In this document: positions 1-4,550 of the stretch, one piece after another
Position numbering within the stretch: the stretch's first letter is position 1
Layout of the letters: the number at the start of each line of letters is the position of its first letter
Virus record (IMG/VR): IMGVR_UViG_3300018471_000187
DNA: 4,550 nucleotides
Origin: a virus
Lineage: Duplodnaviria; Heunggongvirae; Uroviricota; Caudoviricetes
Direction: 5' to 3' (one strand)
Notes under the pieces: model-generated
What the model was told of the DNA's origin: nothing
Databases searched by the model: none
The model's input: only the letters and a program-made list of their open reading frames with translations
Position numbers and translations under genes: made by a program

Positions 1-30
1 CTGGAGTTCAGACGTGTGCTCTTCCGATCT
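1..30. other. Illumina TruSeq-type sequencing adapter (reverse complement of AGATCGGAAGAGCACACGTCTGAACTCCAG); non-biological
   Basis: Positions 1-30 read ctggagttcagacgtgtgctcttccgatct, the exact reverse complement of the first 30 nt of the standard TruSeq adapter. The same adapter is present in forward orientation at 4517-4550. Confidence 0.95.
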
Positions 31-77
31 TGGCAAAAACTGATCCCGAGTCAGGCTGATTCTTAATGTTCAACTGT

Positions 78-109
78 CGCCGGTTGTGACTGGTATTCTG
101 CAACCGGCG
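78..109. repeat. Inverted repeat / stem-loop: 9-bp GC-rich stem (cgccggttg / caaccggcg) with a 14-nt loop, upstream of xis; function unknown
   Basis: Positions 78-86 are the perfect reverse complement of 101-109. No U-tract follows on either strand, so it is not a canonical intrinsic terminator. Confidence 0.5.
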
Positions 110-138
110 CTCGTCTGATGTAAGAGATAAAGAAATCG

Positions 139-390
139 ATGAGCGAAGTAATCATGATTGTCTCTCCCGGCAAATGGGTATCCGAAGAGCAGTTAATTGC
201 GCTGAAAGGAATAAAAAAAGGTACGTTAAAAAAGGCCCGGGAAAAATCGTTTATGGAAGGAAGGGAATATAAGCATGTCGCTCATGACGGTATGCCATGG
301 GATAACAGTCCATGCTTTTACAACCTGGAAGAAATTGATCGCTGGATTGAGCGCCAGGCATCAGCGAGACCAAGACGTCATCTTACTTGA
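139..390 (+). CDS. xis: Phage excisionase-like protein (lambda Xis-like small DNA-binding protein), 83 aa
   Basis: Small basic ORF immediately upstream of the integrase on the same strand. It contains a GREY motif in a context resembling lambda Xis (DGREYLFHESA in lambda versus EGREYKHVAHDG here). The start is ambiguous between ATG 139 and ATG 154, with no strong Shine-Dalgarno for either. Confidence 0.6.
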   Translation: MSEVIMIVSPGKWVSEEQLIALKGIKKGTLKKAREKSFMEGREYKHVAHDGMPWDNSPCFYNLEEIDRWIERQASARPRRHLT

Positions 391-424
391 CTAAAAGCCA
401 CACTAACTAATGAGAGAAGTTGAA

Positions 425-1705
425 ATGAAATATCCGACAGGCGTGGAAAACCATGGAGGGAAATTACGTATCTGGTTTGTTTATAAAGGCGTAAGAGTCA
501 GGGAAAATCTGGGGGTTCCTGACACAGCAAAAAACAGGCGCGTTGCAGGTGAACTACGCTCCTCTGTTTGTTACGCAATAAAAACTGGTGTTTTCGACTA
601 TGCAAAACAGTTTCCCTCCTCACGCAATCTGGAAAAATTTGGTGAGGCCCGACAAGATTTAACCATAAAAGAACTGGCTGAAAAATTTCTGGCACTGAAA
701 GAAACTGAAGTCGCCAAAACATCACTCAACACATACCGTGCCGTCATCAAAAATATCCTGAGCATAATCGGTGAAAAAAATCTTGCCTCATCGATTAATA
801 AAGAAAAATTACTGGAGGTTCGTAAAGAGCTACTGACTGGATACCAGATCCCCAAAAGTAACTATATTGTTACACAACCAGGGAGATCGGCTGTAACTGT
901 AAATAATTACATGACAAATCTTAACGCCGTGTTCCAGTTTGGTGTTGATAACGGTTACCTGGCAGATAACCCGTTTAAGGGGATCTCGCCATTAAAGGAA
1001 TCAAGAACCATTCCGGATCCTCTTTCGCGGGAGGAATTCATCCGTCTTATCGATGCGTGCAGAAATCAGCAAGCCAAAAATTTATGGTGTGTTTCTGTTT
1101 ATACTGGAGTTCGCCCTGGTGAGCTGTGTGCACTTGGATGGGAGGACATAGATCTGAAAAATGGAACAATGATGATCAGGAGAAATTTAGCAAAAGACCG
1201 TTTCACGGTACCAAAAACACAGGCGGGAACCAATCGGGTCATTCATCTTATTAAGCCAGCAATCGACGCTCTCCGGAGTCAGATGACATTAACGAGACTG
1301 AGCAAAGAGCATATCATTGATGTTCACCTCAGAGAGTATGGCAGAACAGAAAAACATAAATGCACCTTTGTTTTTCAACCTGAAGTGTCAGCGAGAGTAA
1401 AAAATTATGGTGACCATTTTACCGTTGACTCAATAAGGCAGATGTGGGACGCAGCGATAAAACGTGCCGGACTCCGCCATCGAAAATCATATCAGTCGAG
1501 ACATACTTATGCCTGCTGGTCGCTGACAGCTGGTGCTAATCCGGCATTTATAGCAAACCAGATGGGCCATGCAGATGCGCAAATGGTATTTCAGGTATAC
1601 GGAAAATGGATGTCTGAAAACAATAATGCACAGGTAGCTTTGTTAAATACACAGTTAAGCGAGTTTGCCCCAACCATGCCCCATAACGAAGCAATGAAAA
1701 ATTAA
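425..1705 (+). CDS. intQ: Tyrosine-type site-specific recombinase (phage integrase, IntQ/IntR-like), apparently full length at 426 aa
   Basis: N-terminus PTGVE...RIWF is typical of Rac/Qin-family integrases. The catalytic-domain motifs are present: VRPGEL (box I Arg), SRHTYACW (box II Arg) and GHADAQMVFQVY (His with the Tyr nucleophile 10 residues later). Start chosen at ATG 425 (MKYPTGVE), which has a purine-rich GAGAGAAG 5 nt upstream; the in-frame ATG at 410 has no SD. The gene symbol is by positional analogy to K-12 intQ, from memory. Confidence 0.85.
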   Translation: MKYPTGVENHGGKLRIWFVYKGVRVRENLGVPDTAKNRRVAGELRSSVCYAIKTGVFDYAKQFPSSRNLEKFGEARQDLTIKELAEKFLALKETEVAKTSLNTYRAVIKNILSIIGEKNLASSINKEKLLEVRKELLTGYQIPKSNYIVTQPGRSAVTVNNYMTNLNAVFQFGVDNGYLADNPFKGISPLKESRTIPDPLSREEFIRLIDACRNQQAKNLWCVSVYTGVRPGELCALGWEDIDLKNGTMMIRRNLAKDRFTVPKTQAGTNRVIHLIKPAIDALRSQMTLTRLSKEHIIDVHLREYGRTEKHKCTFVFQPEVSARVKNYGDHFTVDSIRQMWDAAIKRAGLRHRKSYQSRHTYACWSLTAGANPAFIANQMGHADAQMVFQVYGKWMSENNNAQVALLNTQLSEFAPTMPHNEAMKN

Positions 1706-1892
1706 TTTAATATTTATCAAATAGTTGACACGTATGACTCTTGAAATCCATAAATTCAAGCGCAGTGCCCAGCCATCCCGATACTGCTGCTTTCACCAAA
1801 TCCTTAGTGCTTCTTTCATGTTTTTCTATTGTCATAATGGTTATCTCTAAAAAAGAGGTAAGATGCGTACTACTTACTCGCCGTTATTGGTA
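1706..1892. other. Prophage/host junction region expected to contain the attachment-site core (attL or attR); core not identified
   Basis: 187-bp non-coding gap between the convergent int stop (1703-1705) and rspB stop (1893-1895). Its int-proximal part (about 1706-1760) is AT-rich, as phage att arms often are. It contains a sigma70-like element, TTGACA (1725-1730), 18-nt spacer, CATAAA (1749-1754), reading towards rspB. Confidence 0.4.
1849..1879 (-). terminator. Candidate intrinsic terminator of rspB: imperfect 7-bp stem with one bulge followed by a T6 run on the minus strand
   Basis: Plus-strand gaggtaag (1855-1862) pairs with cttactc (1873-1879) around a 10-nt loop; the A6 run at 1849-1854 becomes the U-tract on the minus strand. 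It lies 14-44 bp downstream of the rspB stop. The stem is AT-rich and weak. Confidence 0.35.
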
Positions 1893-2912
1893 TTATTCAG
1901 AAAAAGTGAGTAAGACTTTGCAGCAATGTTTTTGATCCTGTTCAAATAAACTAATGGCATCAGCAACATGCTGGAAATCAAACGTATGGGTAATTAATTT
2001 TTCTGGTTTAATTAACCCTTTACTTAACCAGTCGATAACAACCGGAAATTTATTTGCATTTAAGCGTGAAGAGAAAATAGAGAGTTCTTTTCCGGTAATT
2101 CCTTGCTGAATCACTTCAGACGGTTCACTGGAGAAGCCCATCAATACAATACGTGCCGCTGGAGAAGCCAGCGTTACGGCCTCTTTCAGGATAGAAGGAT
2201 GACAAGCCGCATCGATAATTAATGTCGGCTTGATGCCTTTTTCAGCGAAAATCTCGCCAAGCGGTGTCTGGCTGTTATTAATCGCCCTGTCTGCCCCGCT
2301 CTCTTTCGCTTTTTCCAGTCGTTCATCAATGCGATCGGCAACAATCACATTTTTAACGTTATAGACGCCTTTTAATACCTGAACGATCGTCAGGCCGATT
2401 GGACCGGCACCATAAACCAGAACGGTATCATTTTCAGTCGGTTGACCATGACCGGTAACGTTAGCCGCAATGGTAAAAGGTTCGATCATCACCGCATATT
2501 GATCGGCCACTGCTTCAGGAATTTTCCACGCATTTTTTGCCGGAACCACGGCATATTCACTGAAACCACCGTCAGCGTGCACACCTAATACAGCAAGTGT
2601 CGTACAAACGTTCGGCTTACCTATAGAGCACGGATAGCAATGCCCACAGCTGACCACCGGATCGACAGCAACACGTTCACCGACTCTGGCGCTTTCCACG
2701 CCGTCACCCACCGCATCAATGACGCCAAAGAATTCATGTCCAATGACGCGCGGATATTTCACAAAAGGATTATGCCCACGATAAATATGGCTATCAGAAC
2801 CACAAATTCCGGCAAGTTTCACTTTTACTCGTACTTCACCCGCTGACGGGGTGGGTATTTCACGTTCGACAATCGCCAGTTGATTCGGTTTTTCAATTAA
2901 TATGCTTTTCAT
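1893..2912 (-). CDS. rspB: Starvation-sensing protein RspB, Zn-dependent alcohol/polyol dehydrogenase family (MDR superfamily), 339 aa
   Basis: The translation carries the catalytic-zinc region GICGSDSH...GHEFFG, the structural-zinc motif CGHCYPCSIGKPNVC and the Rossmann motif VYGAGPIGL. Start set at ATG 2912-2910 (MKSILIEK) with SD AAGGAG 7 nt upstream; the longer track ORF beginning MELVRSKI would start inside rspA and lacks an SD. Length matches E. coli RspB from memory. Confidence 0.9.
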   Translation of the reverse strand: MKSILIEKPNQLAIVEREIPTPSAGEVRVKVKLAGICGSDSHIYRGHNPFVKYPRVIGHEFFGVIDAVGDGVESARVGERVAVDPVVSCGHCYPCSIGKPNVCTTLAVLGVHADGGFSEYAVVPAKNAWKIPEAVADQYAVMIEPFTIAANVTGHGQPTENDTVLVYGAGPIGLTIVQVLKGVYNVKNVIVADRIDERLEKAKESGADRAINNSQTPLGEIFAEKGIKPTLIIDAACHPSILKEAVTLASPAARIVLMGFSSEPSEVIQQGITGKELSIFSSRLNANKFPVVIDWLSKGLIKPEKLITHTFDFQHVADAISLFEQDQKHCCKVLLTFSE

Positions 2913-2919
2913 TATCTTA

Positions 2920-2925
2920 CTCCTT
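2920..2925 (-). promoter_or_regulatory. Shine-Dalgarno of rspB (AAGGAG) overlapping the rspA stop codon; translational coupling within the rspAB operon
   Basis: Minus-strand AAGGAG at 2925-2920; rspA stop TAA at 2926-2924; rspB ATG at 2912-2910. The intergenic gap is 11 nt. Confidence 0.6.
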
Positions 2926-4138
2926 ACCAGTTCCACAGCGTGCCATCTTCCAGACGTGCGACTGGTAGATAAGCAGGTTCATAGGGATATTTCGCCGCCA
3001 GCTTTTCATCGAATTCGATGCCAAGACCCGGTTTGTCTCCCGGATGCATATAGCCGTTATCGAAAGTCCAGTTGTGCGGGAAGACTTCGAGCATTTGTTC
3101 GGAATAACCCATGTATTCCTGGACACCGAAATTGGGGACCCACAGATCAAAGTGCAGCGCTGCAGCCATGCAGACTGGTGACAAATCGGAAGGACCGTGT
3201 GAGCCAGTACGTACCTGATACAGCGAAGCAAAATCGGCAATCCGGCGCATACCGGTAATTCCGCCTGCATGGGTCAGCGTGGTGCGGATATAATCGATGA
3301 GTTGCTCTTCAATCAGTTGTTTGCAGTCCCAGATGCTGTTGAAGACTTCACCCACTGCGATGGGTGTGACGGTATGTTGGCGAATGAGACGGAAGCATTC
3401 CTGGTTTTCTGCAGGCGTCGGGTCTTCCATCCAGAACATGCGATAATCTTCAATGCTTTTACCAAAGCGCGCCGCTTCAATAGGCGTTAAGCGATGGTGC
3501 ATGTCATGCAGCAAATGTTCATTAAAACCAAACTTGTTACGTACCGCGTCAAACAATTTCGGCATGAAATCGAGGTATTTCTCCGTCGACCACAGCTGCT
3601 CTTCCGGCCACTGTCCTTTGGTTGCGGGTTCATAAGCCAGACCTTTACCTTTCGACATGCCGTAGGTGGTTTTCATACCAGGGATTCCGCACTGCACGCG
3701 GATGGCTTTGAATCCCAGCTCCTGATGACGGGCATAATCATCCAGAGCTTCATCAATACTGTGACCGGTGGTATGGCAATAAACCATCACCCCTTCACGA
3801 GACGCGCCGCCGAGTAACTGGTAAAGCGGCATGTTGGCAGCTTTGGCTTTAATATCCCACAGCGCCATATCAACCGCTGAAATGGCCGACATCGTAACCG
3901 GACCGCGACGCCAGTAAGCACCTTTATAGAAAAACTGCCAGATATCTTCGATACGGTGCGCATCGCGACCAATAAGCTGCGGACAAAGGTGATCCTGCAA
4001 ATAAGAGGCCACGGAAAGCTCACGTCCATTGAGGGTGGCATCCCCAAGGCCCGTAATACCGTCCTCAGTGGTGATTTTTAATGTGACGAAATTACGCCCC
4101 GGACAGGTAACAAAAACTTCAGCCTTTACGATCTTCAT
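2924..4138 (-). CDS. rspA: Starvation-sensing protein RspA, enolase-superfamily D-mannonate dehydratase-like protein, 404 aa
   Basis: The translation [40 protein letters not shown]... and the FWMEDPT metal-binding region are characteristic of the ManD/RspA subgroup. Start set at ATG 4138-4136 with SD AAGGAA 6 nt upstream; the extra 11 N-terminal codons of the track ORF have no SD. Length matches E. coli RspA from memory. Confidence 0.9.
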
Positions 4139-4244
4139 GTTCGATTCCTTGCATCGCTTGTCGTGATGCATGAAATCTACGCAACTGAGCTACTACCATA
4201 CAAGTATGAAGATCGAAAAAAGCCGGAGTGATCACAAAAAAAGG

Positions 4245-4273
4245 CGTATATTTGCGCTGTGAATGGTTGACAA
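4245..4273 (-). promoter_or_regulatory. Weak candidate sigma70 promoter for rspAB: -35 TTGTCA, 17-bp spacer, -10 TATACG
   Basis: On the minus strand, TTGTCA is at 4273-4268 and TATACG at 4250-4245, about 100 nt upstream of the rspA ATG. The -10 lacks the conserved final T, so this is a low-confidence pattern match only. Confidence 0.2.
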
Positions 4274-4294
4274 AAGATGAAATAGAATACCTTT

Positions 4295-4306
4295 TGTCAG
4301 CTGACA
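4295..4306. promoter_or_regulatory. Perfect 12-bp palindrome TGTCAGCTGACA in the ynfA-rspA intergenic region; candidate transcription-factor operator
   Basis: Positions 4295-4306 are exactly self-complementary. The pattern T-GT-N6-AC-A fits the generic FadR/GntR-family half-site arrangement. It lies about 160 bp upstream of the rspA start and about 40 bp downstream of the ynfA stop. Confidence 0.3.
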
Positions 4307-4343
4307 CTTCCTCTTATCTTATTGATAAAATGGATTTATGTTC

Positions 4344-4516
4344 CTACGTGCGCCCCCAGCCCGCAACAATGATCAACATGCCGCAAAGCGCAATCAACGC
4401 ACCCGTCCAGTCATAAAGAGTCAGTTTCACGCCATCCACAACGCGCAGCCACATCAACGCCGTGCAGACATAAACGCCACCATAAGCCGCGTAAACACGC
4501 CCACTCGCCGCTGGAT
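4344..4516 (-). CDS. ynfA: UPF0060-family small inner-membrane protein YnfA, C-terminal portion only (5' end truncated by the fragment end and adapter)
   Basis: Translation [56 protein letters not shown], stop TAG at 4346-4344, matches the hydrophobic C-terminus of E. coli YnfA from memory. The first 12 codons of the track ORF ([12 protein letters not shown]) are encoded by adapter sequence and are not part of the gene. Confidence 0.75.
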
Positions 4517-4550
4517 AGATCGGAAGAGCACACGTCTGAACTCCAGTCAC
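4517..4550. other. Illumina TruSeq-type sequencing adapter AGATCGGAAGAGCACACGTCTGAACTCCAGTCAC; non-biological
   Basis: Exact 34-nt match to the standard TruSeq adapter sequence, in inverted orientation relative to positions 1-30. Confidence 0.95.

Follow-up and report, generated by a model that had tools for sequence, protein, structure and literature searches.

The ydfJ gene of Escherichia coli is a published integration locus for phages, and an att sequence of 18–19 bp has been defined there (PMC8112680). In the O26:H11 strain 11368, attP of the ydfJ prophage was amplified by PCR with two prophage primers (PMC8112680), and the product is taken to mean the excised circular form. No excision of the Qin prophage was detected in K-12 (Wang et al. 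2010), a result that was put down to an inactive intQ (PMC3105296). mEp460_ev081 (LR597641) has been described as a functional temperate phage with homologues of dicB, dicF, dicAC and rem, and in Qin the leftward early operon is the DicA-repressed dicBF operon (PMC10448788). For the Rac prophage, XisR has been shown experimentally to be the excisionase, and it binds attR (PMC4632033).

Here we analysed a window of 4,550 bases, a short assembly contig of which only positions 31–4516 are genomic. Illumina read-2 adapter occupies bases 1–30 and 4517–4550 in opposite orientations, and its presence at both contig ends indicates that untrimmed reads entered the assembly. These adapter ends would also fit a chimeric contig in which phage and chromosomal reads were joined, making the intact-looking recombination module an assembly artefact. 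We consider the probability of such a chimera negligible and dropped this reading, which is effectively ruled out because 31–4516 aligns as a single stretch without gaps to many complete E. coli chromosomes (99.7–99.8% identity); in addition, the junction at 1743–1753 is an exact attR that is found in K-12 and elsewhere.

The gene order was derived from the list of open reading frames (ORFs), Pfam matches and coordinate mapping onto a colinear annotated locus (L001), and one of the complete chromosomes was compared base by base. The genomic part of the contig begins 108 bp upstream of xis, and the window spans one prophage end, comprising the 3′ end of an exonuclease gene, xis, int and attR (Table 1). 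The exonuclease gene, which in K-12 corresponds to the truncated pseudogene ydfE, is the last one before xis in the leftward early operon. Scanning the entire window against Rfam (E ≤ 1) gave no match. We regard it as highly likely that the window shows the right-hand end of a lambdoid prophage of the Qin/mEp460 type, inserted in the MFS transporter gene ydfJ at about codon 32 and immediately upstream of rspB, that its int/xis module is an ordinary intact one, and that the intQ defect of K-12 is a lineage-specific, IS2-associated deletion.

Table 1. Features of the window, with the attachment-site and arm-site sequences used in the comparison
Feature	Position	Strand	Basis or role	Sequence
Exonuclease gene, 3′ end (prophage)	31–66	+	mapping onto L001, where the exonuclease CDS 17580–20036 ends at the equivalent of window position 66	
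xis, 83-aa excisionase, DUF1233/XisR family	139–390	+	ORF list, Pfam and RefSeq identity	
int, 426-aa tyrosine integrase (431 aa from the ATG at 410)	425–1705	+	ORF list, Pfam and RefSeq identity	
R230 codon	1112–1114	+	predicted catalytic	
K264 codon	1214–1216	+	predicted catalytic	
Y356 codon, in place of the first His	1490–1492	+	HxxR box	
R359 codon	1499–1501	+	predicted catalytic	
H382 codon	1568–1570	+	predicted catalytic	
Y392 codon, nucleophile	1598–1600	+	predicted catalytic	
Candidate arm-type Int-binding sites, in tandem	1663–1686	+	inferred	TTTGCCCCA and CATGCCCCA
Candidate arm-site segment of the int 3′ end (1663–1683)				TTTGCCCCAACCATGCCCCAT
att core, present as attR	1743–1753	.	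four-way att comparison	GAAATCCATAA
ydfJ 5′ fragment read on into the phage arm; start codon 1833–1835	1707–1835	-	joined-flank frame; K-12 ynfP annotation	
rspB, chromosomal flank, outside the element	1893–2912	-	Pfam and mapping onto L001	
rspA	2924–4138	-	mapping onto L001	
ynfA start, cut by the contig end	from 4344	-	mapping onto L001	
attB			empty ydfJ site	AACTG-GAAATCCATAA-ATTCAAGCG
attP			mEp460	CTCTT-GAAATCCATAA-TTCACAGG
attL junction at the 3′ part of ydfJ				contains AACTGGAAATCCATAATTCACAGGTG
attB-spanning sequence				AACTGGAAATCCATAAATTCAAGCG
Circular attP-spanning sequence				CTCTTGAAATCCATAATTCACAGG

A first, sequence-only reading of this stretch had described the integrase gene as a single uninterrupted ORF of 426–431 aa. 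This description is accurate: 410–1705 encodes 431 aa, or 426 aa when translation begins at the in-frame ATG at 425. This second ATG is more likely to be the start than that at 410, because the NCBI annotation pipeline PGAP uses it for the identical RefSeq protein (WP_000876998.1), because the resulting N terminus, MKYPTGVE, parallels MSKLPTGVE of Rac IntR, and because a purine-rich GAGAAG, read directly from the sequence, precedes it. Loss of the N-terminal arm-binding domain had been raised as one way in which the integrase might be defective; the domain is complete, with PF12167 (Arm-DNA-bind_2, E = 1.6e-23) matching over the whole model (positions 1–65 of 65). The catalytic domain matches PF00589 (Phage_integrase) with E = 3.9e-18 and a score of 66.2 bits, the cut-off being 27.1, and weak SAM-like Pfam matches cover the core-binding region. 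These domains extend over residues ~4–67 (arm-binding), ~80–190 (SAM-like core-binding) and ~200–395 (catalytic), and by this arm-binding, core-binding and catalytic architecture we class Int as a lambda-style heterobivalent tyrosine recombinase. An NCBIfam search with Int returned only sub-threshold Xer-type matches.

Catalytic residues were assigned from a phmmer alignment without gaps to Tn1549 Int, whose structure is solved, from a family alignment and from motif logic. MAFFT alignments to lambda Int were set aside for these residue calls, as they set the HELR of lambda three positions away from YQSR and broke up the stretch around the tyrosine nucleophile. In the 426-aa numbering, the residues are R230 (TGVRPGE), K264 (VPKTQAG), R359 and H360 (SYQSRHT), H382 (MGHADA) and Y392 (QVYGKW). 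The earlier statement that the catalytic Arg, His and Tyr motifs are in place thus stands for R230, K264, R359, H382 and Y392 but not for the first His of the HxxR box, which in this protein reads Y-Q-S-R with Tyr at position 356. In addition, the nucleophile sits 10 residues past H382, compared with 9 in lambda Int. The Y-x-x-R variant and the 10-residue spacing are both common to Rac IntR (PYHTRHTFACW) and to the integrases of the Stx phages VT1-Sakai and BP-4795 (SYQSRHTYACW), and so they are probably family traits and unlikely to be defects. As to loss of a catalytic residue, the other weakness that had been considered, the one departure is Tyr at the His-II position. The variant seems compatible with Int activity, because Rac, whose integrase is IntR, excises (PMC4632033), and Int is probably catalytically competent.

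The Xis-like gene that had been noticed ahead of the integrase is also well supported. Over model positions 1–69 of 70, its 83-aa product matches PF06806, 'Putative excisionase (DUF1233)', with E = 1.6e-31 and a score of 108.1 bits, where the cut-off is 22, and its stop codon lies 34 bp before the int ATG at 425 on the same strand. The protein is identical to RefSeq WP_000005552.1 and 100% identical to the Xis of mEp460_ev081. It shares 26% identity with Rac XisR (E = 2e-5), which likewise matches PF06806; an NCBIfam search with Xis returned nothing. By analogy with its family, Xis would bind and bend the phage arm, biasing Int toward attL × attR recombination.

That intQ of K-12 is defective had been stated in the sequence-only reading; this is correct, and a comparison of the two loci locates the damage. 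In MG1655, the annotation lists intQ (b1579) as a pseudogene that immediately follows a remnant of IS2E, with the truncated exonuclease pseudogene ydfE nearby and without xis. In BLAST comparisons, K-12 matches the window only from base 546 on, which is exactly the end of IS2E, and its DNA is 99.1% identical from that base onward; the intact exonuclease gene of a wild strain matches K-12 only as far as the start of IS2E. Given that the matches end at both IS2E borders, K-12 has lost about 2.2 kb, which took away the 3′-terminal two thirds of the exonuclease gene, the entire xis gene and codons 1–40 of int. The IS2E remnant stands in place of all three, and K-12 IntQ retains only positions 37–65 of the 65 in PF12167.

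To define the attachment site, we compared the window with attP of mEp460_ev081, the left junction of the ETEC element, the left and right junctions in K-12 and the unoccupied ydfJ of O104:H4. attB, attP, attL and attR are exact reciprocal hybrids around an 11-bp identity, GAAATCCATAA, and attR of the window is an exact attP/attB hybrid that joins the left arm of the phage (1706–1742) to the bacterial (ydfJ) right arm. When one mismatch and one single-base indel are allowed, the similarity grows to 18 or 19 bp; this agrees with the published att sequence in a comparison of lengths only (PMC8112680). The core sits inside the 5′ end of ydfJ, just before rspB, and coincides with the Qin boundaries annotated in K-12. 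Joining the bacterial flanks of attL and attR gives one open ydfJ frame across the core, MTIEKHERSTKDLVKAAVSGWLGTALEFMDFQLYSLGAALVF..., and this joined, empty-site sequence is uninterrupted in 2,011 of 5,426 complete E. coli genomes. The minus-strand ORF at the junction contains the first ~33 codons of ydfJ and continues into the phage arm, and its K-12 equivalent is annotated as the small protein YnfP. attL is intact both in the ETEC remnant and in K-12. By analogy with related integrases, Int would recombine attP with attB, with strand exchange within the core carried out by Y392, and excision through attL × attR would restore ydfJ.

TTTGCCCCA and CATGCCCCA lie in tandem, 11 bp apart, within the 3′-terminal part of int and at a distance of about 70 bp from the core. 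In the 9.3-kb locus of mEp460, all three copies of TGCCCCA fall less than 150 bp from the core, and an inverted GGCCCCA is found on the other arm. Rac carries TTTGCCCC(C)A twice just past the stop codon of intR, and VT1-Sakai and BP-4795 have a similar motif pair in the 3′ end of int. Because the motif clusters at the core and recurs across the integrase family, we propose the tandem copies as candidate arm-type Int sites; a de novo count of repeated 8–10-mers around attP found no excess over shuffled sequence. In the family model, the N-terminal domain of Int would contact such arm-type sites, while its central and catalytic domains would bind the core.

A promoter and terminator consensus scan of positions 1–1950 returned fewer promoter-like sites than shuffled sequences did, and none adjoining xis or int. 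We therefore propose no dedicated int promoter like lambda pI. The likely gene order is a dicA-controlled promoter followed by ydfABC, dicF/dicB, ydfD, the exonuclease gene, xis and int, such that xis and int would end the leftward early operon and would be expressed on its derepression.

Nearly identical integrases are encoded by sequenced phages. In tblastn searches, the integrases of mEp460_ev081, HannyBb, PhiR42_1 and Tritos were 99.1–99.5% identical to that of the window. The mEp460_ev081 protein differs at 2 of 426 residues (S46A and H301Y), its Xis being identical, and the PhiR42_1 protein differs by G22D and H311Q only. mEp460 also shares the exonuclease–xis–int–att order and an identical phage arm up to the att core, with the difference that the module in the window is integrated, as attR, on a chromosomal contig. 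The order exonuclease–xis–int–attP–ydfK–pin–tail fibre in mEp460 corresponds to the two ends of Qin. K-12 Qin itself has the same insertion in ydfJ by rspB and the same att core, and differs by the IS2E-linked loss.

More distant systems share the same layout to varying degrees. Alignments to K-12 IntQ, IntR and lambda Int had been proposed in the sequence-only reading, and in them IntQ is truncated, IntR is 44% identical and lambda Int is 23% identical. IntR and XisR of Rac have the same Pfam architecture (Arm-DNA-bind_2 plus Phage_integrase, and DUF1233), the Y-x-x-R box and tandem GCCCCA near the 3′ end of int; however, Rac targets ttcA rather than ydfJ, and IntR is without the C-terminal 14 residues whose codons overlap the candidate arm sites in the int gene of the window. 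The integrases of VT1-Sakai and BP-4795 (yehV and yecE sites) are ~62% identical from end to end and have the domain order and the SYQSRHTYACW box in common with Int of the window, but their att cores and chromosomal targets differ. Lambda Int and Xis follow the same logic, with a heterobivalent Int, a small directionality factor upstream and a phage arm that overlaps the 3′ end of int, whereas the lambda arm domain is Arm-DNA-bind_1, the HxxR box is canonical and xis overlaps int, which the xis of the window does not. The module is of an already known ydfJ-integrating type (Qin, PPydfJ, mEp460-type), with no new gene family, site or mechanism.

The sequence-only reading had implied that an intact module at this site is rare, and this implication did not hold up. 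xis–int DNA (139–1705) matches 3,057 of 5,426 complete E. coli genomes, 2,350 of which cover at least 80% of it, and so the intact form is the commonest occupied state (~2,350 of 3,057 int-carrying genomes with full xis–int DNA). The K-12-type copy, with query positions 408–1567 only, is found mainly in laboratory derivatives of K-12. A third class, cut at query base 952, occurs mainly in O157:H7-type genomes among the matches listed, and this class fits the published inactivation by IS insertion of the ydfJ-prophage integrases of PV15-279 (PMC8112680). BL21 and strain 55989 have an essentially complete xis–int module. The intact module is the common, ancestral state, and the contrast with K-12 reflects damage in the K-12 lineage and no special property of the strain from which the window came.

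We conclude that the recombination module, comprising Int, Xis and attR, is very probably functional. This conclusion draws on the identity or near-identity of Int and Xis to those of mEp460_ev081, which is described as a functional temperate phage (PMC10448788), on the demonstrated role in Rac of XisR, an excisionase of the same Pfam family (PMC4632033), and on the attP obtained from the ydfJ prophage of O26:H11 strain 11368 (PMC8112680). The suggestion that the prophage keeps a functional recombination module was therefore well founded: int and xis are whole, attR is an exact hybrid, Xis equals that of mEp460 and the two differences in Int are non-catalytic.

A module that is intact in sequence may nevertheless be stranded in a decayed prophage, with attL lost or the early operon uninducible, and int and xis may be recent passengers that have not yet mutated and never act. 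The ETEC M9682-C1 element, a relative with identical Int and Xis, is a 9-kb remnant that consists of ynfT, ydfK, a truncated pin, IS1, hokD, an AbiH-family gene, IS3, the exonuclease gene, xis and int, so that a live phage does not follow from an intact int/xis. The lambdoid prophages of other close relatives differ and are partly degraded: in strain C41, whose genome is the best match across the entire window, the prophage is a K-12-like Qin to which early genes are added, and strain 90-9281 has a different lambdoid mosaic. The window, being one prophage end, holds no attL and no further prophage gene, and the consensus scan placed no promoter-like site next to xis or int. However, attL is preserved even in the ETEC remnant and in K-12, the four DNA differences in xis and int between the window and the ETEC copy are all synonymous, and excision does occur in E. 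coli for defective prophages whose int and xis are intact, as exemplified by Rac (PMC4632033). We consider a stranded module possible but unlikely, and continue to favour a functional one. As the prophages of its relatives differ so widely, the element in the window may lie anywhere between a live phage and a mobilisable stub.

It is also conceivable that selection maintains int and xis as a reversible ydfJ switch, a form of active lysogeny in which excision would turn the gene on under some condition and re-integration would turn it off again, whether or not phage is produced, with a GCCCCA arm-site code conserved across IntR, IntQ and the Stx-phage integrases. The insertion splits ydfJ at about codon 32 and precise excision restores the frame, the population is polymorphic (2,011 empty-site genomes against ~2,350 with full xis–int), the exonuclease gene, xis and int remain intact within the heavily decayed 9-kb remnant, and excision of Rac similarly alters a host gene, ttcA (PMC4632033). 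Yet the gain and loss of an ordinary phage explains the empty and occupied states equally well, and many lineages have inactivated int without restoring ydfJ, including K-12 and the O157:H7 copies cut at query base 952. A selected switch is therefore highly improbable in our view, and the ordinary integration and excision module of a ydfJ prophage is the reading that we retain.

K-12 is the exception among E. coli that carry a ydfJ prophage, most of which keep a complete int and xis that match their counterparts in sequenced phages exactly or almost exactly. The relevance of this is mainly one of annotation, in that the module looks special only against the broken copy in K-12. In natural isolates, prophages and prophage remnants at ydfJ, including the effector-carrying ones in STEC (PMC8112680), should be regarded as potentially mobile, and their excision would restore ydfJ.

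Occupancy of the ydfJ site is strongly polymorphic across the 5,426 complete E. coli genomes: the site is empty in 2,011 of them, and about 2,350 carry the full xis–int DNA. Laboratory strains are the main carriers of the K-12-type int truncation, and a xis–int copy cut at query base 952 (the query being window 139-1705) was found mainly in O157:H7-type genomes among the matches listed. In ETEC strain M9682-C1, whose Int and Xis proteins are identical to those of the window, the ydfJ prophage has shrunk to about 9 kb, yet its exonuclease, xis and int genes and its two att cores are all intact. This remnant also contains IS1, IS3, hokD and a gene for AbiH-family abortive infection.

Features of the window and of comparison loci (L001, M9682-C1; L003, L004 and L010, loci with Qin-type, Rac or Stx-phage elements)
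Feature	Position	Detail
ydfJ prophage remnant, about 9 kb	L001 12428-21700	ETEC O6:H16 strain M9682-C1
Hairpin, perfect 10-bp stem, GCGCCGGTTG ... CAACCGGCGC	window 77-113	between exonuclease stop codon and xis start
Int Y356, place of first His in HxxR box	window 1490-1492	
Int Y392, nucleophile Tyr	window 1598-1600	
Tandem (T/A)TGCCCCA, 11-bp spacing	window 1663-1683; L004 5239-5262 and 5436-5466; L003 1965-1995; L010 about 1838-1858	
Illumina TruSeq read-2 adapter	window 1-30 and 4517-4550	CTGGAGTTCAGACGTGTGCTCTTCCGATCT and AGATCGGAAGAGCACACGTCTGAACTCCAGTCAC
ydfJ 5′ fragment ORF, YnfP equivalent	window 1707-1835 (−)	

Both ends of the window are adapter and thus non-genomic, and the first residues of the listed 68-aa 'ynfA' ORF are adapter-derived. 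The K-12 'small protein' YnfP consists of ydfJ codons 1 to ~33 with read-on into the phage arm of attR. Two bases of that arm differ between K-12 and the window, and the equivalent ORF is 42 aa in the window as against 36 aa in K-12.

The hairpin preceding xis has a predicted energy of −23 kcal/mol (z −2.4 relative to shuffles). It lacks a U tract, and an Rfam scan of the whole window (E ≤ 1) returned no match to it. It could serve as an RNA processing or attenuation element for the control of xis/int expression.

Throughout the integrase group comprising IntQ, IntR and those of the Stx phages VT1-Sakai and BP-4795, the HxxR box has Tyr in place of its first His, and the nucleophile Tyr follows the third-box His by 10 residues, not 9. 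In Qin-type, Rac and Stx-phage elements, the int 3′ end contains or adjoins the tandem (T/A)TGCCCCA. These copies are coding in Qin-type and Stx-phage elements, where they specify the C-terminal Int tail (..PTMPHNE.. / ..PCMPHKK..), but non-coding in Rac, whose IntR is without this tail. We propose the tandem copies as candidate arm-type sites, which the Arm-DNA-bind_2 domain would bind.
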